Positions 2 through 31,550 of a stretch of DNA of 32,000 bases are shown one piece after another. The translations under genes were made by a program, and so were the position numbers. Source of the stretch: Verrucomicrobiota bacterium. GTDB taxonomy: Bacteria > Verrucomicrobiota > Verrucomicrobiia > Chthoniobacterales > UBA6821. The stretch spans positions 1 to 32,000 of the forward strand of contig WBXG01000007.1 of the NCBI GenBank assembly GCA_008932965.1. Direction: 5' to 3'. The notes under the pieces are model-generated. The model was not told the DNA's origin. It was given only the letters and a program-made list of their open reading frames with translations, and searched no databases. Each line of letters opens with the position of its first letter. The first letter of the stretch is position 1.

Positions 2-340
2 AGAATGAAATACCGGAAGGCCCACAAGGGCCGGGTCAAAGGCAAAGCCAAGGCCGGCACTGAGCTGACCAAAGGCGAATTTGGCCTGATGGCTATGGAA
101 AGCGGAAAGATAACGGCGCGCCAGATCGAAGCGGCCCGTATCGCGATGACCCGCCACTGTAAAAGGGGCGGTTTTGTCTGGATTAAGATCTTCCCAGCCA
201 AGCCAATTACCAAGAAACCTGCCGAAACCCGTATGGGTAGCGGAAAAGGTGGTGTTGAGTACTACGTTGCGGTTGTAAAACCGGGCAGAATCCTTTATGA
301 GATGCAGGGCGTGGAGAAAGCTGTTGCTGAAGAGGCTCTG
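2..340 (+). CDS. rplP: 50S ribosomal protein L16 (uL16), internal fragment. The N-terminus runs off the window edge, the C-terminal ~25 residues are absent, and it reads in frame into the next feature.
   Basis: The translation [82 protein letters not shown] matches the conserved uL16 core. Codons are GC3-rich (GCC, GGC, CTG, AAG), unlike the rest of the window. Confidence 0.7.
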
Positions 341-745
341 ACGCTTGCTCAAGAAAATGCACAACGCCATCACATCACAAACATCACCTGGCATCAGGGA
401 AATCTTTTGGAACCACTTTCAAAACAAGGAAGCCCACCCACTTTTGATCTCATTGTTGCTAATTTGCCCTACATTCCAAAAGAAGAAATTCTAACCTTGT
501 CTCGTGAAATAGCACATGACCCTATGATGGCTTTAGATGGGGGTGGCGATGGACTAGATCTTATTATGCGTTTGATTAAAGAGGCGCCTGCTTATCTAAA
601 ACCAGAGGGGTATCTTCTGCTAGAAATTGGAAAAAATCAAGAATGTGAGGTGATGCAACGATTGCAAGAATCCGGTTATCAAAGCATTCATGCCATTGCA
701 GATTATCAGGGAGTATTAAGATTCATTGAAGCAGTGCAACCATGA
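341..745 (+). CDS. prmC: Release-factor glutamine methyltransferase PrmC/HemK, C-terminal ~135 aa only. The SAM-binding N-terminal half is missing.
   Basis: [28 protein letters not shown]...[13 protein letters not shown]...L..E....DP..AL.GG.DGLD....[16 protein letters not shown] matches the HemK motif IV region and C-terminus. AT-rich codon usage resumes here. Confidence 0.65.
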
Positions 746-2207: not shown

Positions 2208-3257
2208 CTATTCTAACTCAAAATTGATATTGACCGTATAAGCACTATTAGAACCAATTCCACGAGGCAATGGGGCAATTTTTAGGACCTTTTGAGCAGC
2301 TGACAAAACCGAGGCATCCATCACAGGATTTCCGCTTGGCTTAGAAAGGGCAAAATGAGAAATGGTCCCATCTGATTGAATTGTTAATTGCAGAGTGCAA
2401 ACAAAATCATGCTTATGTTCTGTTGGAATTGCAGTCGGTTGTTCCCATTGACTATAAAATCGATCATGAATGAGTTCATGATAGGCACCTAGTGCTCCAT
2501 TATCGACACCAGTCCCATTTCCCTCTCCATGCGTTCCGGAGGCTCCAGCCCCTCCATTTTTACTTTCAAGAAAAGCTGATTTTGTTGATGAGTCAGCATG
2601 ATTGCTGCTATTGATATTTTTACTATGACCCTCTTTTTTTTCATGAGAGGTCGATTCCTTGGATTTAGGAGAGGATGTGGAGTGAGATATTTTTTCCTTA
2701 GCCTCACTTTGAGAAGTAGCTTTTAAAGCTGGCTTGGGAGTCAGTTTTGGAATTGGCTTTGGAGTTGGCTTGGGAGTCAGTTTTGGAATTGGCTTTGGAG
2801 TTGGCTTGGGAGTCAGTTTTGGAATTGGCTTGGGAGTTGGCTTCGGAGTTGGCTTCGGAGTTGGCTTCGTAGTTACATCAGCCAGTGGTATCTCAGATTT
2901 ATTTTCTAATGGAGGAGGTGTACCCTCTTCCACAGGATCTTCTTTAGGATCTTCTGTAGGAGTGACTGGTGCATCTAATTTGGAATCAGGAGAAGAAGGT
3001 GTGGCAACAGGGGCTTCCTGTTCTTCCTCCTTAGTAGTAGGTACAGATTGCTCTTTTTCAGCAGTAGCCGGAGCAGGTGCTGGAATTCCTAATGTGGGAG
3101 ATGCTGAGCCAAAAGATCCTGTATCAAGCCATGTTACCTGTTCGAGAGGTGGTTTCACAGGTTGCCTCATAAAATAGATGATACTTAAAATAAGTACTCC
3201 ATGAATAGAGGCGACAATAATAAGTGCTCTTCGGAAATCCGGCCGAATATTTTTCAT
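2208..3257 (-). CDS. TonB/TolA-family energy-transducer protein
   Basis: It has an N-terminal TM helix ([19 protein letters not shown]), a long Pro/Lys/Thr-rich spacer with TPKP repeats, and a C-terminal TonB_C-like domain ([16 protein letters not shown]...[32 protein letters not shown]). The start overlaps the upstream exbD-like stop (ATGA). Confidence 0.8.
2731..2874. repeat. Tandem repeat inside the TonB-like CDS: three 36-bp units followed by three 12-bp units
   Basis: The unit ggcttgggagtcagttttggaattggctttggagtt occurs at 2731, 2767 and 2803. It is followed by ggcttcggagtt x2 and ggcttcgtagtt. On the minus strand this encodes [12 protein letters not shown] reiterations. Confidence 0.9.
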
Positions 3258-7159: not shown

Positions 7160-9340
7160 CTATGCATAATGCGAGCTAGAATTTTTTTTCTTGAAATAAA
7201 AATCATGTATCCAACAAATGATTCGCTGGATAAGGAATATCCCAGCACGTTCCAATTCAGATTTTTGCTGCCACTGATAAGCTCGCACTGGAATTGTTTC
7301 TTCTATGAGTTTTTTCCAAAATTTTAGAGTTGCTTCTTGAGTAAAAGCTTGTCCCGATCGGTGGCCATTTTGAACAAGCATAGCACGCAAACTTGGGTTT
7401 TCTTGAAGTTGTTTGAGTTGTTTAAAAACTTCTTTAAGTGATGTAGCCACGAGATAATCTATCTCAGGATTCCCATCAGCAGCATAAGCAGAATCGGATC
7501 CTCCAATAAAGGGAACTCCTGCTAACCAAGCATTATAGAGCTTTGTAGCAGGCTTATTCATATGCAAAGAGCGAGAGAAGCTGCGAATAGCAATCACACA
7601 GTCAACATCAGTATAATTATTCCACTCATGATATCCTCGTATTTGAAAATGAAGTCCAAGCTCTTCATATAGCCTGCGATGCCATTTTTGAGAACGAAGC
7701 TCCGGGGCAAGGTTTTGTATTTCCCCAAAGAAGCAGACATTTTCAAAGCGTGTTCCTCGAGTTGGATCACGTGGTTTTAGAAAAGGTTGAGGCCAGTGAG
7801 GAACATAAATGGAATTTGGAAGATAACGGGTATAATTTCTATTTTCCACTAAATGCAAATCCACACTAGGATGCGGTGTTTTATCAGCAAGAATATCGAC
7901 TAGAAATAAATGTGGATTTATAGATTTTCGTCTGAGTAACGGGTTTAAAAGCTTGCTCATCGTAATACAAATTCCAGTATTTTTTTCAAAAGGAAACTCG
8001 GTGGAAAGAGTAGAGTTGACTCCAATTTTCTTAAGCAAACTCCATGTTTGATAAATCCAACATGTAATTGTAGGGCTTTTGATTGGTTGATTTAATGCCA
8101 TTGGGTCTCCTTCTTTCCATTTTTCTCCCCAATCATCAGCAGAAAGAAAATATTCCATGATATGAAATGAAATCTTATCAAGAAACTTGATGGGAATCTG
8201 TTTCTCCATTTTTTTCTGGAAATAGTTGGTATAATACCGAAGAAAAAAAGTAGATAAGGAAGGGACCTTTGCATGAATGCTTGCACACGTTGCAAATAAG
8301 ATGGAGGCACGTTTTAAAGCGTTCGCTGATGCTTTCCAGTACCAAGAAAGGAGTGGATGTTCCGGCTTTTTTTCTTGAGCCTCTAAAGAATAAAAAGTGG
8401 CATCTATACTATTTTCGAGGGAAAATGCTGCCTTTCTCCAATATTCTGCTAACCGCTTATCTATTGTTAAAGCCTCACTTGCAGATGTGCGGTAGAAAAT
8501 AATTTTTTTATACACCTTTACCTGAGGAGGTAACTGATTATCTTCAAATTCTAATTTCTCTGCTTTGCAGGTCAGTTTCTTCCAGAGGTCATCGACAGCA
8601 TTCAAAGCTGCTAAAGCAGCTAGTGAATACTCAATAGCCTGATCTTCGTTGCCGATTTGAGTGGCCATTGCGGCTTCGATCCGTAACGCTAGAGCATTCT
8701 GATTTAATTCGAGAAGCTCATTCCAGAGGTGTTTATAGGGTGCTATTTTCTCTGGTGAAATGGATGCAGTATGAATATGGATATTGGCAAGATGAGCTGC
8801 CGCATATGCTGCTTTTACCCAACGATGGGTTAACACTATATTCAAAAAAGCATCATGGTTGTTAAGCGCTTGTGCTTTTTTAAATAAGGAAACTGCCTTG
8901 ATAGCATAACGAGAGGCTTCAGGAAGAGTCGACTCATAGTGGATTGCTGCCTGCGATACTTCTTGTATTTCTTGATCAAAATCTTTTGAGGCTTGTGCCT
9001 GCGCAAAAGCTAACCAATAACGGTACGCCGAGCCTGCTTCCCTATTTTCATTCCTATGGAAGGCCCAATAGGAGATTTCTGATTTTTGAAGCTTGTGATC
9101 CAAATAGTAATTGCCTTCTTGGTTCCAATAGGTCAAAAACGCAATCGCATCAATACTATGGGTTCGTTGAGGTTTGAGTAGCGCAGTTGCAGTTCTTTGT
9201 TGATCTACGAATGCGGCCTCATCGCTTGCAAGCCTCCAATATGCAGCAAGTCTCTCGTTTCCGAAAGCAGAAGCCCTGAGAGCTTGCTCACGATAGAGAG
9301 CAATTTCATCTCTTGCTTCTCTCTGAATTGAAAAATCCAT
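7160..9340 (-). CDS. Hypothetical two-domain protein: N-terminal alpha-helical repeat region (~390 aa) plus a C-terminal GT-B-like putative glycosyltransferase domain
   Basis: The N-terminal part carries recurring xYW(R/K)xA helical motifs (AAYWRLAS, YRYWLAFA, AEYWRKAA, SWYWKASA). The C-terminal ~340 aa is clearly paralogous to the next gene (CWIYQTW, FLVDI.AD..PHP...LHLV.NR, PHW.QP.L.PRDP.RG, NLAPELRS, KPATKLYNAWLAGVPFIGG.DSAYAADG). Confidence 0.6.
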   Translation of the reverse strand: MDFSIQREARDEIALYREQALRASAFGNERLAAYWRLASDEAAFVDQQRTATALLKPQRTHSIDAIAFLTYWNQEGNYYLDHKLQKSEISYWAFHRNENREAGSAYRYWLAFAQAQASKDFDQEIQEVSQAAIHYESTLPEASRYAIKAVSLFKKAQALNNHDAFLNIVLTHRWVKAAYAAAHLANIHIHTASISPEKIAPYKHLWNELLELNQNALALRIEAAMATQIGNEDQAIEYSLAALAALNAVDDLWKKLTCKAEKLEFEDNQLPPQVKVYKKIIFYRTSASEALTIDKRLAEYWRKAAFSLENSIDATFYSLEAQEKKPEHPLLSWYWKASANALKRASILFATCASIHAKVPSLSTFFLRYYTNYFQKKMEKQIPIKFLDKISFHIMEYFLSADDWGEKWKEGDPMALNQPIKSPTITCWIYQTWSLLKKIGVNSTLSTEFPFEKNTGICITMSKLLNPLLRRKSINPHLFLVDILADKTPHPSVDLHLVENRNYTRYLPNSIYVPHWPQPFLKPRDPTRGTRFENVCFFGEIQNLAPELRSQKWHRRLYEELGLHFQIRGYHEWNNYTDVDCVIAIRSFSRSLHMNKPATKLYNAWLAGVPFIGGSDSAYAADGNPEIDYLVATSLKEVFKQLKQLQENPSLRAMLVQNGHRSGQAFTQEATLKFWKKLIEETIPVRAYQWQQKSELERAGIFLIQRIICWIHDFYFKKKNSSSHYA

Positions 9341-9362: not shown

Positions 9363-10376
9363 CTACCGTGTTACACGATCGAAATAACAAGAAAAGTGTT
9401 GCATGAGGTGCAAACAGGAATGTTCCAATGAGGATCGTTGCTTCCACTTGAGAGCTTCTGCAGGAAGCGTTGTTTGAACTAATTTCTTCCAACGATCGAG
9501 CGTTGCTTCCCTTGTATAGGAAACCACTGATTCCGATCCCTTCTGGACTAATTTCCAACGCATTACTGGATCTTCCTTGAGTTTTTTTAAATATTGAAAA
9601 ACTTTTTCAGCAGAGGTTCCTACAAGATAATCTTCTCCAGGATGACCATCAGCAGCATAGGCAGAATCGATTCCTCCAATGAAGGGAACACCAGCAAGCC
9701 AGGCATTATAAAGTTTGGTTGCTGGTTTATGAAGGTGCCTTGAGCCAGAAAAGTCACGAATTGCAATTACTCCATCGACATCGCTGTAATCATGCCAACG
9801 TCGTGCTTCTCTGATTTCTAGCAAAATACCAAGTTCTCTATGAAGTTGTTCTTGCCATGCTGCAGATCGTAGCTCCGGTGCAAGATTGCTACTGTCACCA
9901 AAAAAAGAGATTTTTTCAAAAAGAGAGCCACGTGCTGGGTCACGTGGAATCAGATGAGGTTGTGTCCAATGTGGCATAAAAAGGGAGCGCGGTAATTGTC
10001 TAGCATGAGCTCTGTTTTGAACAAGATGAAGATGCGCTGCAGGATGGGGCAACCCATCAGCAACAATATCGACAAGAAAGTAATTGTGAGAAATCCACTT
10101 TTTACCATTTTTTTTAAACTCCTCTTTGAAACAAGATACTATAGATGGAAAAGAGCTACTCATAGCGATGATAATACCCCCTTCATGAGGGAGGCTACCG
10201 AGAAGTGAACATGGAATCTTTTCCTGGATGAGCAAAGCCCATGTTTGATAGATCCAGCATTGAGCTGTGGCCCCTTTCCCTTTTTCTTCGAGTGGAATAA
10301 TCTGATTTTTTTCTAAGGCTTCTATCCAGAATTGGTTTGGAAAATGTTCTTTGGGCAAGATAAATGAGATAGGCAT
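9363..10376 (-). CDS. Hypothetical GT-B-like putative glycosyltransferase, stand-alone paralog of the C-terminal domain of 7160..9340
   Basis: By eye it has more than 50% identity to the C-terminal domain of the neighbouring 726-aa protein. HKPATKLYNAWLAGVPFIGGIDSAYAADG resembles the nucleotide-sugar-binding half of GT-B enzymes. It lies next to GT4 and acetyltransferase genes. Confidence 0.6.
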   Translation of the reverse strand: MPISFILPKEHFPNQFWIEALEKNQIIPLEEKGKGATAQCWIYQTWALLIQEKIPCSLLGSLPHEGGIIIAMSSSFPSIVSCFKEEFKKNGKKWISHNYFLVDIVADGLPHPAAHLHLVQNRAHARQLPRSLFMPHWTQPHLIPRDPARGSLFEKISFFGDSSNLAPELRSAAWQEQLHRELGILLEIREARRWHDYSDVDGVIAIRDFSGSRHLHKPATKLYNAWLAGVPFIGGIDSAYAADGHPGEDYLVGTSAEKVFQYLKKLKEDPVMRWKLVQKGSESVVSYTREATLDRWKKLVQTTLPAEALKWKQRSSLEHSCLHLMQHFSCYFDRVTR

Positions 10377-12144: not shown

Positions 12145-13280
12145 AGCGAGTATTGCATGTCATCGATCATCTTCAATTGGGTGGAGCTCAATCTTTATTG
12201 TTAGATTTAGTAACCTTAATGGAAAAATCAGAATGGCACTGTGAAGTTGCTTCCATGCATGGACGTGGTCTTTTTGCAGAACTCTTAGAAAAAAAAGGAA
12301 TCTCAGTCCATTCCCTCTCTCCCTCCTTATGGCCACCGTGTTATCTTGCTGCATTTGCAAGCCTCCAATCTCAATTTGATATTCTTCATTTTCATCTTTC
12401 GGGTTCCAATTGGATTGCCAAACCCATGGCAGCTCTCCTTGGAAATCAACCCCGGATATCACATGATCATGGGAGTGATGATTTTCGTTTTCGTGGTAGG
12501 GGATTTGTTTTAATGGATGCCATCATGCATCGCTTTTCAACACACACGATTGCCGTCACACCGGAGGTAAAACAATTTTTAACCCATTATGAAGCTCTTA
12601 CTGCGGAGTCAGTCACAGCGATCTCAAACGGAATCAACGTGGAAGAATTCCGTCCTTTTACTTCAGAAGAAAAAAAAGAAGCCCGTCTGTTTTTTGATTT
12701 GCCCTCGGAAGCATTTGTGGTGGGCACGGTAGGCCGTCTTGCGCCTGAAAAAAACCAAACACTTTTCTTGAAAGCCGCTAAAATTGCTCTCGAGCAAGGA
12801 TTGAAAGCTACTTTTCTAATTGCAGGGACAGGCCCCGAAGAAGCAGCTTTAAAAAAATGTGCTGCACAACTTGGCATCGAACATAGTGTTCGCTTTTTAG
12901 GACAGATTAAAGATCGCGTCCAGCTCTACCGTTCATTAGATCTATTTGTACTAACCTCACGCTTTGAAGGTTTGCCAATGGTACTTTTAGAGGCCATGGC
13001 TTCAGGAATACCAGTTGTAAGCACCGATCTTGAGGGAATTCATCATGCACTTGAGGGAGGACGACATGGTCTCTTGATTCCCTCGGAGGATGAGATAGCT
13101 TTAAGTGACTGCTTGCTGCACTCCCATGAACGAATCCAACAAGAATCTTTGCGAAGTGCACGTCTTAAAGTAGAATCAGATTTTAGCGCTCAGAAAGCTG
13201 CTAAGAAGTTAGGGGATTTATATCAGTCACTTCTGAGCCCGAATATTTCACACCGATTACCTATGGAAGCCGGAAAGTAA
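12141..13280 (+). CDS. Glycosyltransferase family 4 (GT1/GT4 RfaB-like)
   Basis: LQLGGAQSLLLDLV, VGRLAPEKNQ and SRFEGLPMVLLEAMASGIPVVSTD motifs. The last 15 codons and the stop (from 13234) are encoded by a repeat element. Confidence 0.9.
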   Translation: MKRVLHVIDHLQLGGAQSLLLDLVTLMEKSEWHCEVASMHGRGLFAELLEKKGISVHSLSPSLWPPCYLAAFASLQSQFDILHFHLSGSNWIAKPMAALLGNQPRISHDHGSDDFRFRGRGFVLMDAIMHRFSTHTIAVTPEVKQFLTHYEALTAESVTAISNGINVEEFRPFTSEEKKEARLFFDLPSEAFVVGTVGRLAPEKNQTLFLKAAKIALEQGLKATFLIAGTGPEEAALKKCAAQLGIEHSVRFLGQIKDRVQLYRSLDLFVLTSRFEGLPMVLLEAMASGIPVVSTDLEGIHHALEGGRHGLLIPSEDEIALSDCLLHSHERIQQESLRSARLKVESDFSAQKAAKKLGDLYQSLLSPNISHRLPMEAGK

Positions 13281-13511
13281 GTGTGGACGCTTTATTGAGC
13301 TCGAAGTCTTCCTTGGGCGGTAGGTATTCATACAGCCCTGCATCAAAATGCTTGCCTGCGTTGACTCACTCGCTCCCACTCGTTTCCCCCTTTTAGGGCT
13401 TCCTAAGAGGCTCCTAAGAGACAGTCTCCCCCGCGGTCTCCAGACCACCGGTGGTGCCCTATCAGTCTTCGCGACCTCCTCTTTACGATCAGTATGAAAT
13501 ATGCGGGCTGG
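13234..13511 (+). mobile_element. TIR element, long form (278 bp), with a nested ~96-nt hairpin module at 13361..13456
   Basis: The left end is TGAGCCCGAATATTTCACACCGATTACC and the right end is CGATCAGTATGAAATATGCGGGCTGG. The core TACAGCCCTGCATCAAAATGCTTGCCTGC is followed by a TTGACTCACTCGCTCCC... module. Confidence 0.85.
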
Positions 13512-13616
13512 GAGAATTTAATCTTCATTTTCTTTTTTTTACTGTTTCTTTTTTAGTAAAAGGACCCATGCTCAAGTTTGTTTGTTTTGGTCTTTTAATG
13601 TTTAATTTTTTGAAAA

Positions 13617-23815: not shown

Positions 23816-23910
23816 AAAAGAGCAAGAAGCCTCTTCTATCTTTTTAGTGCGCGCATTATTGAGTTTTTATGCTCTTAAGAAATTCAGAAAGCTGTTAGTT
23901 TAGCAGAATA

Positions 23911-23975
23911 TTAACCCGGATATTTTATACTGATCGCGGCCTTCGCTGGTGATCAGAATGAAATATGCGGGTTAA
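23911..23975 (+). mobile_element. Miniature (65 bp) deletion derivative of the TIR element, essentially the two arms only
   Basis: TTAACCCGGATATTTTATACTGATCGCGG-CCTTCGC-TGGTGATCAGAATGAAATATGCGGGTTAA. TTAA is present at both ends and the sequence folds as a near-perfect hairpin. Confidence 0.85.
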
Positions 23976-24005
23976 CCACATTATCCTACAGAATTTTTCA
24001 CACTT

Positions 24006-24545: not shown

Positions 24546-24587
24546 AGCCGTAGTAGTAGTAGATTTAGTATGAAATATTTGGGCTAG
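24546..24587 (-). repeat. Solo left-arm terminus (reverse orientation), abutting the next copy and sharing its CTAG
   Basis: AGCCGTAGTAGTAGTAGATTTAGTATGAAATATTTGGGCTAG duplicates the end of the adjacent copy (CTTCCGTAGTAGATTGGTATGAAATATTTGGGCTAG at 24732..24767). Confidence 0.7.
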
Positions 24588-24767
24588 CCCAAATATTTCA
24601 TACTGATCGTGACGAGGAAGCTGCGAAGGGTGATGGGGCAAGGCAGTCGAGCATTTTGATGCTGGGCTGTATGAACACATACCGCCCAAGTCAAAATGGG
24701 AGTCTAACGCAGCATCCATCTGACTTCCCAGCTTCCGTAGTAGATTGGTATGAAATATTTGGGCTAG
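24584..24767 (-). mobile_element. TIR element, standard form (184 bp), reverse orientation, CTAG at both ends
   Basis: Its reverse complement aligns end to end with the copies at 28118 and 25500, including the core TACAGCCCAGCATCAAAATGCTCGACTGCC. Confidence 0.9.
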
Positions 24768-25486: not shown

Positions 25487-25499
25487 TTACAGCTTCTTG

Positions 25500-25705
25500 T
25501 TAACCCGGATATTTCATTCCGATCACCTGCGGAAGCCGGGAAGCTAGGGTTGATGCTGCGTTGGTCTCGAATTGTGATTCGGGAGGTAGGGACTCTACAG
25601 CCCTGCATCAAAATGCTCGCCTGCGTTGACTCGCTCGCTCCCACGCGGTCTCCCATCAGCCTTCGCAGCCTCCTCATCACGATCAGTATGAAATATCCAG
25701 GTTAA
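25500..25705 (+). mobile_element. TIR element (206 bp), reference copy, carrying a 27-nt remnant of the nested module (25626..25652)
   Basis: TTAACCCGGATATTTCATTCCGATC...GATCAGTATGAAATATCCAGGTTAA. Internal hairpin CTCGAAT-tgtg-ATTCGGG (25566..25583). Core CTACAGCCCTGCATCAAAATGCTCGCCTGC. Confidence 0.9.
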
Positions 25706-25992
25706 AAAATTTGCTCCAATGCTGCTGTAAGCAAATATCCCTGGAGTTTTTCTACGTAGAGTTCTCCTTCTTCACGAGAGCCGGACCAAAGAGTAGAGCG
25801 TCCTTGTACGTGTACTTCGCGCATTTTTTTTTCTGCAATTTCTTTGCTAAATCCAAAGATCTTTTGAAATACCATAGTCACATAACTCATTAGATTAATA
25901 GGATCATCATGGACAACGACCTGCCAGACTGGCTCCAGTTCTAGTTCCATGACTGTTTCAGGATTTTCTAAAATGAGTGGTTCCGTTGTCAT
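25702..25992 (-). CDS. clpS: ATP-dependent Clp protease adaptor ClpS
   Basis: VWQVVVHDDPINLMSYVTMVFQKIFGFS.E.A...M.EVH..G......GSREE.E.YV..L. The stop TAA lies inside the element's terminal TTAA (25702..25705). The start overlaps the ybeY stop. Confidence 0.92.
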   Translation of the reverse strand: MTTEPLILENPETVMELELEPVWQVVVHDDPINLMSYVTMVFQKIFGFSKEIAEKKMREVHVQGRSTLWSGSREEGELYVEKLQGYLLTAALEQIF

Positions 25993-26530: not shown

Positions 26531-27205
26531 ATGCCGCATTCCAAGATCACTCACGATACTGTTACTGCTGCAGTAAAAAAAGGAACGGGTAAAAACAAAT
26601 TACCCCATTCTTGGAAAGATCCACTTCATCTTTTAAGTCGTTTTCTTGTAAAACCTCACTCTGTGGGATCCATTTGGCCAAGTTCCCAGCACCTGGCTCG
26701 AGCAATGATTGATGGTGTTGCTCTGAAGCCCGGAGATGTCATTGTGGAGTATGGACCGGGAACAGGGCCTTTTACACAGCTTTTACGGAATCATGTAGCT
26801 GCGGGAGTCGACTATATCGGCATTGAATATGATAAAAATCTCTATAAAAATCTGACTACTCGTTTTTCAGAAATGCGTTTTCATCATGGTTCTGCAGAAG
26901 ATACAGCAGCCATTCTCAAGCATTATAAGCTCAAGCCAGCTTCTCTCATTATCTCTGGATTACCTTTTGCAAATATGCCAACAGCACTTCAGGAGCGTAT
27001 TCTCAATGCAACTCAAGAGGCACTCCTTGAGGATGGAATGTTCCGAACTTTTTCTTATCTCTTATCTTCAATGAGACCTCGTATTACTCACTTTCAAAAA
27101 ATGGTTTCTATCCGTTTCAATGAAAAGCATCAAAGTACAACAGTACTTCGAAACTTTCCTCCGGCACGTGTCTTTAGTTTTTCTCGACCAGTAATGCAAA
27201 AATGA
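26531..27205 (+). CDS. Class I SAM-dependent methyltransferase (COG3963 phospholipid N-methyltransferase-like)
   Basis: VGSIWPSSQHLARAM.....LKPGDVIVEYGPGTGPFTQ is the N-terminal signature plus motif I. Confidence 0.7.
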   Translation: MPHSKITHDTVTAAVKKGTGKNKLPHSWKDPLHLLSRFLVKPHSVGSIWPSSQHLARAMIDGVALKPGDVIVEYGPGTGPFTQLLRNHVAAGVDYIGIEYDKNLYKNLTTRFSEMRFHHGSAEDTAAILKHYKLKPASLIISGLPFANMPTALQERILNATQEALLEDGMFRTFSYLLSSMRPRITHFQKMVSIRFNEKHQSTTVLRNFPPARVFSFSRPVMQK

Positions 27206-27244
27206 GTTGCCCGCCCACAATTGCAAACATACTGCTCCGTTTCA

Positions 27245-27319
27245 AGTTATCCCCATCCGTATTGAAAAGTAAAACTAGTTTGGCTGCCTTGCATAGATTT
27301 GAACTATGACAAGCAGATT
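27245..27319. repeat. Direct repeat copy 1 (75 bp): 36 nt of tRNA-Gln trailer plus tRNA-Gln nt 37-76
   Basis: 74/75 identical to 27419..27493, with the single mismatch at 27279/27453. It contains the T-arm, the 3' acceptor strand and CCA of tRNA-Gln but no 5' half. Confidence 0.95.
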
Positions 27320-27418
27320 GACTCGCTCGCTCTCGCTCGTCTCGCCCCTTTGGGGTTGCTTTATCAAAGCAATCTACCCCGCGGCTTTGCAGCCGCCGGT
27401 GTTCAGTCTGAATCTGCT
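27320..27418 (+). repeat. 99-nt insert between the tRNA-Gln direct repeats, a copy of the nested hairpin module
   Basis: (TT)GACTCGCTCGCTCTCGCTCGTCTCGCCCCTTTGGGG-TTGCTTTatcAAAGCAA-TCTACCCC-GCGGCTttgcAGCCGC-CGGTG aligns with modules at 13361, 28505 (reverse), 28618 and 30005. It ends with TCTGAATCTGCT, an inverted 12-nt copy of the tRNA anticodon loop and 3' stem. Confidence 0.85.
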
Positions 27419-27493
27419 AGTTATCCCCATCCGTATTGAAAAGTAAAACTAGCTTGGCTGCCTTGCATAGATTTGAACTATGACAAGCAGATT
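27419..27493. repeat. Direct repeat copy 2 (75 bp), part of the intact tRNA-Gln locus
   Basis: See copy 1. The repeat boundary at 27493/27494 falls between the anticodon's third base and nucleotide 37. Confidence 0.95.
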
Positions 27494-27528
27494 CAGAGTC
27501 TGCTGTGCTACCGTTACACCACAAGGCA
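27455..27528 (-). tRNA. tRNA-Gln (anticodon CTG), 74 nt with encoded CCA
   Basis: Hand-folded cloverleaf: acceptor TGCCTTG/CAAGGCA (U1:A72, as in bacterial tRNA-Gln), D arm GTGT-AACGGTA-GCAC, anticodon arm GCAGA-CTCTGAA-TCTGC, 4-nt variable loop, T arm CATAG-TTCAAAT-CTATG, discriminator G, CCA. Confidence 0.88.
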
Positions 27529-27538
27529 ATACATTGTC

Positions 27539-28063
27539 TTATTCTGAAAAAAATTCCGGTGGAGCTGTTAAGCTCATGATGCCGCCAAATTTAGAATAAA
27601 CAAAGCGGGAGGAGGTGGTATTACCACGTGTTATTCCAGAAACCTCCGTTATTCCTTGGTTGGCTAATTGCTCGAGTGAGGCATACAAAAGAGCAGAGCC
27701 GAAACCACGATTACGATATTCCGTAAGAACCCAAGGGCCGCTCAGCAGGTGACAGGGAGCCTCCGGTCTCATATCAAGTATCGATACTCCAATAATGCGA
27801 TGACCATGAGCTATGAGAAGGCACGAAGGGGTATTGTTATCAATAAAAGCTCGTTTTACTGCTTCATGAATGGCATTAGTGGCAATAATTGTAGCATCAT
27901 GCCACTCTGTGTTCATTTTTAATGAAAGCAGAGCTACTTGTTTTACCATCTCCTTTTCATCATAGGAGGCTGGACGAACTGAAAATGGTGCTCCCAATTG
28001 AGGGCGATTAGGAAGCTTTACTGTTTTCCAATGAAAAAGATTCCAAGGTGTATTAGAAATCAT
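27539..28063 (-). CDS. GNAT-family N-acetyltransferase
   Basis: Acetyl-CoA binding motif VLTEYRNRGFGSALLYASLEQLANQGI (R/Q-x-x-G-x-G/A). Size is ~170 aa. Confidence 0.75.
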   Translation of the reverse strand: MISNTPWNLFHWKTVKLPNRPQLGAPFSVRPASYDEKEMVKQVALLSLKMNTEWHDATIIATNAIHEAVKRAFIDNNTPSCLLIAHGHRIIGVSILDMRPEAPCHLLSGPWVLTEYRNRGFGSALLYASLEQLANQGITEVSGITRGNTTSSRFVYSKFGGIMSLTAPPEFFSE

Positions 28064-28117
28064 GAATTAAATTTAATAAAAGAGGGGGTTATGAAAATTT
28101 CTTATTATAAAATGGCT

Positions 28118-28302
28118 TTAACCCGAATATTTCATCCTGATCTACTACGGAAGACGGGAAGCAAGGGTGGATGCTGCGTTAGGCTCCCATTTTGACTTGG
28201 ACAGTACCTACTCATACAGTCCTGCATCAAAATACGTGTCTGCCTTGCCCCATCAGCCTTCGCAGCTTCCTCGTCACGACTAGTATGAAATATTCGGTTT
28301 AA
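28118..28302 (+). mobile_element. TIR element, standard form (185 bp), TTAA at both ends
   Basis: TTAACCCGAATATTTCATCCTGATC...GACTAGTATGAAATATTCGGTTTAA. Core TACAGTCCTGCATCAAAATACGTGTCTGCC. No nested module. Confidence 0.9.
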
Positions 28303-28411
28303 GAAATATCGTGGCGATTCAAGTTTCGAATCAGGCAATAACACTAAGCTAGTTTTCACATTGGTCAAGTAGTGTCTGATCTCAATGAAAGCAGATGGAT
28401 CTATTTATGGG

Positions 28412-28765
28412 TTAACCCGCCTACTTCATACCGATTCTGCTGCAGCTTGCGAACACCTGATAGATACTGCGTCAGTCTCGAATTGCTCCTCGGGCAGTAT
28501 GACTACCGGCAGCGGGGAAGCTGCGGGAGAGATTGTCGCAAAGCGACAACCCGAAGGGCGAGACGAGCGAGAGCGAGCGAGTCAAACTACAGCCGTCGTC
28601 GCAATCCATCACCTTCGTTGACTCGCTCGCTCCCGTTCGTCTCGCCCTTTCAGGGCTGCCCCCTAAAGCCAGGGCAGTCTCCACCACGGTCTCCCGACCG
28701 CAGGTGGTTTCTGTATCAGGATTCGAGGCGCCTTGCGACGAACCAGTATGAAATATGCGGGTTAA
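28412..28765 (+). mobile_element. TIR element, composite form (354 bp), with two nested hairpin modules in inverted orientation (28505..28585 reverse, 28618..28707 forward)
   Basis: TTAACCCGCCTACTTCATACCGATTC...AACCAGTATGAAATATGCGGGTTAA. The left arm is nearly identical to the copy at 31368. Internal 30-nt inverted repeat GGGCGAGACGAGCGAGAGCGAGCGAGTCAA / TTGACTCGCTCGCTCCCGTTCGTCTCGCCC with a 32-nt spacer. Confidence 0.9.
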
Positions 28766-28824
28766 TTGAGGATGGACTATCAAGGAGAGCGCAGAAGTGG
28801 TAGCAATGATAACAATTATAGAAG

Positions 28825-29943
28825 TTACAAATAGAGTGCATTAACTAAACGCTGTGTTCGTGGCCCTGAAAGAACACCATGATGCATCACATTGGGTACA
28901 TAGGCGAAACCCCATTCACGTTCTGGATCAGCAAAGGCAAGAGTTCCTCCTGCTCCTGGATGGCCAAAAGCTCGAGGATTTTTTCCCATGATCTTGGAGT
29001 TATTATTTACCATTAATCCTGCTGAGAAAAAAGTTTCCTGCTGGAGTACCCGATCTATTCCAGATGCCATTGGTGTTTCCATGAGGTCGCGTGTTTTTTT
29101 ATTAAAAAAAGGACGATCCTCATCCATGGCCACAAGTGAGTAAAATTTGGCAAGTGCAGCAGCATTACTAATAGCACCTGAAGAAACAATAGAGGCTCGA
29201 CGTAGCTCTGGACGATTCATGGATGCCATTGGAAAACTTCCTCCGGGTTCTATGAATGCTCGTCGTGTCAGGGTAGTAGGATCAATGTAAGCAGCGCTAA
29301 AATCACTTGGTGGAGCTGCGGTTTTAGGTGGTATAATAGTTGCTGCTCGATCGAGATGTGCCTCCGGAAGACCAAACCAAAGATCAATTTCAAAAGGGTC
29401 TGCAAAATGTGTGCGCCAGTAGGAGGAGAGGGGGACTCCATCGCAAAGACGCCTTAAGAGTTCATCTACAAGAGAGCCGAAAGTACGAGCCCCATAACCA
29501 TGGCTCCCATCGTAGGGCCAGTTAGATGGCTGCTTAGCAAGAGCCTCAACAATTCCTGCATGATCAGTAAGCAAAAGCCCTTTTTGGTCGAGTGCAGCAA
29601 GACCAGCGCGATGCGAGAGGAGTTGAGCAATAGTAATATTTTCTTTACCGGCTTGTGCAAATTCTGGCCAGAATGTAGCCACTTTTTCCTCTAAAGAAAT
29701 GTTTTTTTCTTCAAGAGCATGAAGAAGAGTAGTAGCTGCAATTCCTTTTCCTGCTGACCAAATCAGCGAGAGTGTTCTCTCCGTCCAGGGTTTCGTTTGT
29801 GATGTATCACACCATCCCCCATACAAAGAGATGATTTTTTCTCCGCGGTGATAGAGAGCCAGAGAGGCCCCCATTTCAAGATCTTCGTCAAAATTATGTT
29901 GAAATGCACAGGAAAGTTGATCTGAAATTTTAGAATAGTTCAT
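28825..29943 (-). CDS. Beta-lactamase-fold serine hydrolase (class C / esterase-like)
   Basis: SxxK at LIWSAGKGIAATTLL and a C-terminal HPGAGGTLAFADPE (H/KxG-type motif). I chose the ATG at 29943 (MNYSKI...) over the upstream GTG at 29985. Confidence 0.75.
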   Translation of the reverse strand: MNYSKISDQLSCAFQHNFDEDLEMGASLALYHRGEKIISLYGGWCDTSQTKPWTERTLSLIWSAGKGIAATTLLHALEEKNISLEEKVATFWPEFAQAGKENITIAQLLSHRAGLAALDQKGLLLTDHAGIVEALAKQPSNWPYDGSHGYGARTFGSLVDELLRRLCDGVPLSSYWRTHFADPFEIDLWFGLPEAHLDRAATIIPPKTAAPPSDFSAAYIDPTTLTRRAFIEPGGSFPMASMNRPELRRASIVSSGAISNAAALAKFYSLVAMDEDRPFFNKKTRDLMETPMASGIDRVLQQETFFSAGLMVNNNSKIMGKNPRAFGHPGAGGTLAFADPEREWGFAYVPNVMHHGVLSGPRTQRLVNALYL

Positions 29944-29989: not shown

Positions 29990-30154
29990 CCACCATCGCC
30001 TTCTTTGACTCGCGCGATCCAGCTCGTTTCTTTTTTAAGGGCTTACTAACCTAACAACTGAGTTAGTAATCGCTCTGGTGGTCTTCCTGTCACGTCTGGT
30101 TTCTATACCAGGCCGCTTACCTTATAACATTTCAGTGTGAAATATCTGTGCTAG
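29990..30154 (+). repeat. Degenerate right portion of a composite TIR element (module plus right arm, no left arm)
   Basis: CCACCATCGCCTTCTTTGACTCGCGCG...TTTCTATACCAGG...CAGTGTGAAATATCTGTGCTAG parallels 28600..28765 of the composite copy. Contains the stem TTACTAAC/GTTAGTAA (30043..30069). Confidence 0.7.
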
Positions 30155-31215: not shown

Positions 31216-31367
31216 AAAAAGAGTATTTAGAAGTTTGGTAATTTTTAGCTACTTGGTCCAATGAGTTTGGAATATCCTAGCGAAGTAAGTATTTAAATTA
31301 GTAGCATTAGCGGAAGTGTACAATTTCAAAATTGGAAAAAAGGAAATAAGGGTCAGGCTAACCCGCC

Positions 31368-31541
31368 CATTTCATACCGATTCTGCTGCGGCTTGCGAAC
31401 ACCTGATGGATACTGCGTCAGCTTCGAATTGCTCCTCGGGCAGTAGGGACTCATACAGCCCTACATCAAAATGCTCGCCTGCCTCACCCCATCAGCCCCC
31501 GCGGCCTCCTCGTCACGATCAGTATGAAATATCCGGGTTAA
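31368..31541 (+). mobile_element. TIR element, standard form (174 bp)
   Basis: CTAACCCGCCCATTTCATACCGATTC...GATCAGTATGAAATATCCGGGTTAA. Stem GTAGGG/CCCTAC around CTCATACAG. Core CATCAAAATGCTCGCCTGCC. Confidence 0.9.
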
Positions 31542-31550
31542 AAGTTCTGT

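Follow-up and report, generated by a model that had tools for sequence, protein, structure and literature searches.

An old repeat linked to a tRNA-Gln gene in Verrucomicrobiota: a probable dead partial tRNA copy holding a dispersed three-hairpin unit

How does a second 3′ half of a tRNA gene come to lie directly downstream of an intact one, separated from it by little more than a trailer and a short structured spacer? The window (the whole 32-kb stretch of DNA that was analysed) contains a single tRNA gene, a tRNA-Gln(CTG) on which ARAGORN and Rfam agree, and a repeat search recovered two direct repeats of 75 nt at 27245-27319 and 27419-27493, 174 nt apart and identical at 74 of 75 positions. 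On the tRNA strand the order is tRNA, 36-nt trailer, 99-nt spacer (27320-27418), 39-nt copy of the tRNA 3′ portion and the trailer again (Table 1), each repeat consisting of 39 tRNA-derived nt (canonical positions 37-76) and the 36-nt trailer. The orphan copy contains the 3′ strand of the anticodon stem, the T arm and the 3′ strand of the acceptor stem. An earlier note on this DNA had described these repeats and their spacer correctly; the inverted match that it reported to the anticodon loop and the 3′ strand of its stem is also real and grows to 18 nt at 89% identity (27407-27424 against 27480-27497). A GNAT acetyltransferase gene ends, stop codon included, 10 nt upstream of the tRNA gene, a linkage kept in all relatives examined, and the homologues of the flanking methyltransferase carry the names Chthoniobacterales or Verrucomicrobia. 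A decayed 5′ half of a second tRNA gene was sought by eye in the trailer and rejected, as 5 of 24 matches is the chance level.

Table 1. Coordinates of the tRNA-Gln(CTG) locus, its neighbours and related repeats in the window
Feature	Position	Strand	Basis
Class I SAM-dependent methyltransferase gene, convergent with tRNA unit	26531-27205	+	Homologue names; synteny in L019, L122
Terminator-like hairpin and T-run on tRNA strand, beyond whole repeat	27208-27229	-	Consensus scan only
Distal 36-nt trailer (T2)	27245-27280	-	1 difference from T1 in window
Orphan tRNA-Gln copy, positions 37-76 with CCA, 39 nt	27281-27319	-	Repeat search
One canonical three-hairpin repeat unit	27318-27401	-	Covariance model R1, 82.8 bits over 27318-27418; folds; family alignment; covariation
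Purine-rich tail of that unit; final AA overlaps direct repeat	27318-27344
P3 of that unit	27345-27355
P2 of that unit	27356-27372
P1 of that unit (GCAA loop)	27378-27399
17-nt junction AGCAGATTCAGACTGAA	27402-27418	-	Inverted repeat match to anticodon arm
Proximal 36-nt trailer (T1), within repeat copy 2	27419-27454	-	Repeat search; homologous to L019, L135 trailers
Working tRNA-Gln(CTG), CCA encoded	27455-27528	-	ARAGORN; Rfam RF00005, 64 bits
GNAT acetyltransferase gene, upstream of and co-oriented with tRNA	27539-28063	-	Pfam PF00583
Second repeat copy, nested in MITE-like element	28487-28585	+	R1, 91.6 bits
Third repeat copy, inverted relative to second, same MITE-like element	28618-28723	-	R1, 81.5 bits; inverted arms
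Fourth repeat copy, nested in MITE-like element 13234-13513	13361-13470	-	R1, 65.5 bits; sequence
Weak repeat copies	25626-25702, 30005-30115	-	Covariance model
MITE-like elements	13234-13513, 24585-24766, 25499-25708, 28118-28302, 28411-28767, 31356-31543
MITE-like fragments	near 2156, 10399, 16250, 17613, 23910-23977, 30130

We retrieved same-species contigs (L001-L011) by an exact-protein look-up of both flanking genes. The duplication and its spacer are present in all of the roughly ten independent metagenome contigs obtained, which derive from different samples and pipelines, and the distal copy carries its own SNPs and a unique junction to the downstream DNA; the duplication is thus not a misassembly, the first doubt that the earlier note had raised. 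That assemblers created it from repeats is extremely improbable, even though contigs of relatives and strains do stop inside the repeat (L055, L131 and L008), as expected of a locus that is hard to assemble. The breaks fall within the tRNA 3′ half or the module, at the contig end in L131 and L008 and at the contig start in L055, and the L131 lineage, whose GNAT is 75% identical, may therefore also carry the duplication.

Comparison of the strains also bears on the age of the duplication. The distal copy always has A at trailer position 2 in the same-species contigs, and one strain group has four further differences in the distal trailer (ATACCAATGGGA versus ATACGGATGGGG), such that T2 differs from T1 at one position in the window, at five in the L001 group and in mosaic fashion in L006. 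The 39 tRNA-derived bases show zero differences between copies in any strain. The L002 contig contains three copies, equivalent to two 174-nt units (2.43 periods, versus 1.43 in the window), a state that could be an assembly or strain effect. Taken together, the differences between copies, the mosaic in L006 and the three copies in L002 indicate an older duplication whose copies evolve in concert, through gene conversion and unequal exchange of units. The 74/75 identity had been read as the mark of a recent event, but it provides no date, since other strains show 70/75 and one is a mosaic, and the event was not a recent one, the architecture being common to three species-level lineages. Within the spacer, P1 is polymorphic: GCAAAGCC is replaced by GCAAAACC in L001, L007, L009 and L010 (window position 27385), a G-to-A change present in about half of the strains that gives the tRNA-linked module a C·A mismatch beside the loop of P1.

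What lies between the two tRNA portions is a composite of 17 nt derived from the tRNA arm and 82-84 nt that constitute one unit of a dispersed repeat. The 33 nt at the 3′ end of the spacer recur at 97% identity elsewhere in the window (27315-27347 against the second copy, 28556-28588), and a scan of a genome collection using the 26-nt module tail as the query matched at least 99 stretches, essentially all in Verrucomicrobiota MAGs (L020-L118). The core of what the earlier note treated as a 99-nt island module is therefore one copy of a dispersed chromosomal repeat. Its unit of ~85 nt reads CACCGG, P1, CGGGG-nAGAC, P2, P3 and a purine-rich tail ending in GAGTCAA, where P1 is a variable 6-bp stem with a GGGA-type (GNRA-type) loop, P2 is a variable hairpin and P3 is CCC-GAA-GGG. 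The unit boundary, GAGTCAA|CACCGG, is visible in tandem arrays (L052, period 87; the arrays in L081 and L115 have a period of 174), and the repeat also occurs singly and nested in MITE-like elements. A covariance model, R1, found six copies in the window, and further copies in relatives that have no tRNA-linked one; among those in the window, the copies at 13361, 28618 and 30005 are each nested in a MITE-like element.

The hairpins of this family are maintained by compensatory change. In the family alignment, 13 of 14 pairs show double changes; 87.1% of cells are paired, compared with 65.7% in shuffles and 33-44% when the partners are slid; and 133 double-change cells were observed against 44 in shuffles, none of 500 shuffles reaching as high a value. 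The three tRNA-linked copies of the module fold alike despite having different stems. A permissive Rfam scan of the locus and three other module contexts gave no matching family for the repeat, returning just tRNA and long-hairpin miRNA false positives. The inverted module tails at 28554-28585 and 28618-28649 form a 32-bp hairpin at 94% identity with a 32-nt loop, which explains the spurious matches to plant and animal miRNA precursors. A crude count suggests that most copies follow the end of a gene and point the same way as that upstream gene (32 versus 15), and counts of G·U against A·C pairs, used to judge the strand of the module, were ~13 versus 18.

Structured dispersed repeats of bacteria include REP/BIME, the pneumococcal BOX element and Correia/MITE-type elements. 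The spacer core is likewise short, intergenic and multi-copy, with conserved hairpins and a position mostly after gene ends; unlike them, it has three hairpins, a GNRA-type loop and a 27-nt purine-rich tail, is confined to Verrucomicrobiota as far as seen, and is absent from Rfam. We know of no transposase associated with it. Some subfamilies end in TTGAC...GTCAA, and pairs of filled and empty sites show no clear target-site duplication. MITE-like elements of 190-360 bp with the terminal inverted repeats TTAACCCGGATATTTCATaCtGATCG occupy many intergenic regions of the window; the one at 28118-28302 is ‘empty’, others hold one or two modules, and the same family is found in L019 and L119. In IMG/VR the module tail occurs in five stretches (L136-L140) on four predicted viral contigs with a GC content of 52-57%; all belong to a Terrimicrobiaceae-type subfamily with AGGACACAGAG flanks and none adjoins a tRNA half.

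Three lineages share the architecture at the tRNA gene, with pairwise PFK identities of only 70-77%. L019 (NCBI MAG GCA_049314455.1; GNAT 79% and PFK 77% identical to the window) has the same layout, in which the tRNA, the first 17 spacer nt and the orphan half are identical to those of the window, the trailer is ~70% identical and the module 94%; five of the six differences in the remainder of the spacer fall in the three hairpin loops. The third lineage, GCA_019747735.1, has a PFK 70-76% identical to the other two, and its locus was pieced together from the end of one contig (L135) and the start of another (L055). Here the order is tRNA-Gln, trailer, ACAGATGAAGAGTCTGACTCTGAA, a module with different stems, nt 39-76 and the trailer again, in a unit of 184 nt whose copy of nt 39-76 is that lineage's own tRNA variant (G57, G67). 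L055 represents a second copy or an allele, which differs by one substitution and lacks the CCA, and this second copy could be an assembly or strain effect.

Other relatives (L120, L122/L123, L124 and L132-L134) have just one plain tRNA-Gln and lack both the module and the orphan half; they provide the unduplicated locus with which the earlier note proposed to compare the window; L122/L123 keep the GNAT-tRNA-methyltransferase synteny, with a gap of 191 nt. The tRNA-Gln sequence is the same in the window, L019, L119, L120 and L122. L119 is the sister of L019 (GNAT 90% identical), yet no module is recognisable downstream of its tRNA, where local alignment to the L019 unit scored 17 against 17.2±2.3 for shuffles. 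L119 does keep CAAGCAGATGAAGAG..GACTGAA ~50 nt past the tRNA, including an 11-mer in common with L135, which we read as a putative decayed remnant of the unit; as the alignment is no better than shuffles, loss by decay rests on these short matches. The simplest history is one origin before the lineages split, followed by decay in L119, and the inverted junction and homologous trailers common to all lineages point to such a single origin.

The junction between the proximal trailer and the repeat unit is the 17-nt AGCAGATTCAGACTGAA, which is outside the canonical unit and consists of tRNA nt 33-44 in reverse complement, to which nt 34-38 are joined. The terminal AA of the unit coincides with A37 and A38, so that the boundary in the window is ambiguous between 36/37 and 38/39. 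L135 carries GACTCTGAA, corresponding to nt 30-38 with the anticodon, upstream of the module, which places the true junction at 38/39. The start exactly after the anticodon (36/37) that the earlier note described is thus the appearance in the window and does not hold once L135 is considered. The 16 nt AGAGTCTGACTCTGAA of L135 match exactly a palindrome in which a T joins nt 30-35, in reverse complement, to nt 30-38, indicating that the pseudo-copy contains the entire anticodon loop and that the module is between nt 38 and 39. A longer hypothetical junction, built in the same way but with nt 30-50 as the reverse-complemented part ahead of the T and nt 30-38, is present almost whole in L135, and the form in the window and L019 corresponds to the L135 type minus the 8-nt palindrome centre. 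The inverted arm copy at the proximal-trailer junction reaches to about nt 46-50 in L119 and L135, and the trailer ends in ATAACT, which is similar to ATGACA, the reverse complement of nt 45-50. An intron in the anticodon loop, such as the bacterial group I type, does not fit the locus: positions 1-25/29 are missing from the interrupted copy and Rfam returned no intron family match there.

These observations bear on the reading in which the locus is the scar of a tyrosine-integrase element that entered the tRNA-Gln anticodon loop and has since lost nearly all of its content, with attL in the working gene and attR in the orphan. A working tDNA and a displaced 3′ fragment in direct orientation (27419-27493 and 27245-27319) are the classic signature of such islands, many islands have att sites centred on the anticodon (2083 of 3919; PMC4383910), and the repeat apparently begins in the anticodon loop. 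We nevertheless regard this origin as very improbable. Pfam scans of the window ORFs detected no transposase, reverse transcriptase or integrase anywhere in the 32 kb (the earlier note, too, had seen no integrase), and these scans and the precomputed Pfam annotation of L001-L011 showed housekeeping genes only, with no tyrosine integrase or remnant of one by the copies. At this site the relatives carry the same small unit or just a plain tRNA; none has an island, integrase-bearing or otherwise, and neither they nor the strains show an occupancy polymorphism. The interval between the copies is chromosomal dispersed repeat plus an inverted tRNA-arm piece rather than foreign cargo; the orphan half had no match in the viral collection, and the unit had none among phages and plasmids by blastn. 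The apparent 36/37 start, which might be taken for an att crossover, is due to the terminal AA of the module, and in L135 the pseudo-copy goes back as far as nt 30 and has its module lodged where the loop meets the stem, which is not the layout of an att core. Compared with Islander-type islands (PMC4383910), the locus likewise combines an intact tRNA gene with a direct 3′ copy seemingly starting in the anticodon loop, but it has no integrase, no cargo, a 99-nt interval of resident repeat and, in L135, a 5′ extension of the copy. The resemblance to an attL/attR pair is therefore superficial, and the suggestion that a larger integrated element was deleted here finds no counterpart in relatives or strains.

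The explanation we favour, and consider on balance probable, is that the locus is an old tRNA-linked repeat in which a dead partial copy of tRNA-Gln, located downstream of the working gene, holds one three-hairpin unit. The anticodon arm forms a natural quasi-palindrome. A template switch during replication of this arm would have re-copied nt 30-76 and the trailer and left part of the arm, inverted, at the junction. Such an inverted arm copy where two tandem copies meet is the expected trace of a switch to the opposite-sense template and back. A repeat unit would then have inserted between nt 38 and 39, in the anticodon loop of this harmless pseudo-copy, and the palindrome centre would later have been deleted in the window/L019 lineage, such that the repeat now seems to begin directly after the anticodon. 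Gene conversion with the working gene has since held the tRNA-derived part identical, and unequal crossing-over alters the number of 174-nt units. The architecture, its age, the place of the spacer in a repeat family and the concerted evolution are thus established here, and the template switch and the order of events are reconstructions from only three lineages. Of the three mechanisms offered in the earlier note, template switching at the anticodon hairpin best fits the inverted copy at the junction; the proposed insertion of the module into the anticodon loop is right in part, the loop being that of the dead copy and not that of the working gene.

Short-range template switching is documented (PMC7954356), and the quasi-palindrome mutations described there have the same inverted copy of an adjacent hairpin arm at the junction. 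Here the switch would also have yielded a tandem duplication of 80-90 nt, which is above the size typical of the cases described. A tandem duplication of the whole gene followed by loss of its 5′ part (nt 1-29) could also have produced the pseudo-copy. Compensatory changes in P1 and P2 between lineages suggest a constraint that a purely neutral pseudo-copy does not predict, although gene conversion from other family members could be their source.

The repeat unit might itself have made the duplication, by an insertion that targets the tRNA-Gln anticodon hairpin and generates a long duplication of its target, as widely staggered cuts could do, in which case the structure could arise repeatedly in different lineages. 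There is a precedent in the window for insertion in a hairpin loop (GTATG-AAA-CATAC, inside the MITE-like element 28411-28767), and the structure is present in three lineages and absent from some relatives placed between them. We judge this improbable all the same. Among 148 module tails, only those at tRNA-Gln are followed by a tRNA part; no other tRNA among 27 (0.97 Mb) has an extra 3′ copy, so the search for further examples that the earlier note recommended yielded none; and comparison of filled with empty MITE sites revealed no long duplication of the target. The unusual inverted junction and the homologous trailers found in all lineages also argue for one origin rather than several. A metagenome scan for the module tail together with any T-loop gave five chance matches, on unrelated AT-rich or GC-rich contigs; it did not recover the species of the window, and is thus uninformative on other tRNAs.

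If the structure is an old, dead copy, is the unit nonetheless used? The earlier note had suggested that a chimeric transcript may arise here. The module and tRNA half may form a selected functional RNA, transcribed together with tRNA-Gln and then processed in the manner of the E. coli rtT RNA, a proposal that is compatible with the origin by template switching and adds a function to it. In the proposed layout of such a chimera, a three-hairpin domain closed by a restored anticodon stem would precede the T arm and CCA; AGCAGAUU can pair with AAUCUGCU to close the domain in this way. The unit is kept in three lineages that have diverged to 70-77% PFK identity, the module stems are kept through compensatory changes while the loops and trailer drift, and the only terminator-like site on the tRNA strand comes after the distal trailer. 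An annotated sRNA, rttR, is located inside the analogous 178-bp repeats of E. coli (PMC3318445). Against this, the unit has decayed in the L119 lineage, the change in about half of the strains leaves a C·A mismatch in P1, gene conversion alone predicts the identity of the half, and the orphan is without a 5′ acceptor strand, such that no tRNA-like acceptor stem can form. On this evidence we think a selected RNA unlikely, if well worth keeping in mind. The fuller version, in which the unit is a conserved gene whose chimeric RNA would be transcribed from the tRNA promoter and trimmed to its mature form by the tRNA 3′-end enzymes, acting as an rtT-like regulator or as a transcribed master copy, appears more doubtful still; were it true, the master copy, as the alternative to a regulator, would be the source of the hundreds of modules dispersed in Verrucomicrobiota.

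The closest known case is the tyrT-tyrV locus of E. coli, whose architecture the present locus shares without being homologous to it. We based this comparison on our own TRF run and on the RefSeq annotation. In K-12, a 178-bp unit is present 3.1 times and overlaps the last 19 nt of tyrV (TRF, L130 905-1463), and RefSeq annotates rttR inside this array. In both systems tandem units follow directly downstream of a tRNA gene (178 bp × 3.1 in E. coli, 174 bp × 1.4-2.4 here), and in both the unit begins with the tRNA 3′ end and contains GC-rich hairpins. The present locus differs in repeating 39 tRNA nt, from the anticodon loop onward, instead of 19, and in that most of its unit is a genome-wide dispersed repeat with an inverted arm at the junction. 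The two loci show no similarity in sequence, and Rfam found no RtT (RF00391) match at E<=10 on 27150-28850. Whereas rtT/RttR is an RNA known to come from the E. coli repeats, the present locus is known from its DNA.

A tRNA gene with a displaced 3′ fragment can thus arise and persist without an integrase, and pipelines that find islands by this signature should expect false positives of this kind. The locus also provides a second, phylogenetically remote example of a tyrT-type tRNA-linked repeat, one that comparative data date and in which concerted evolution is visible. In addition, it brings to light an abundant family of three-hairpin repeats in Verrucomicrobiota of fresh water and soil, with strong covariation and no Rfam entry, and this structured family is a more novel by-product than the tRNA-linked locus itself.

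Some features of the window are unrelated to the tRNA locus. The ORF at 5-745 (plus strand) combines a Ribosomal_L16 match (aa 2-117) with a methyltransferase domain (aa 108-210), and may be a fusion or an artefact of ORF calling at the window edge. Two adjacent large ORFs, 7160-9340 and 9363-10376 (both minus strand), have no Pfam match; they are probable tandem paralogues, with a stretch of 240 nt in common at 71% identity (7385-7624 and 9558-9797). Finally, within a TonB-like ORF (2208-3257, minus strand), a 12-nt periodic repeat of ~10 or more units at 2686-2889 probably encodes the proline/lysine-rich spacer typical of TonB.
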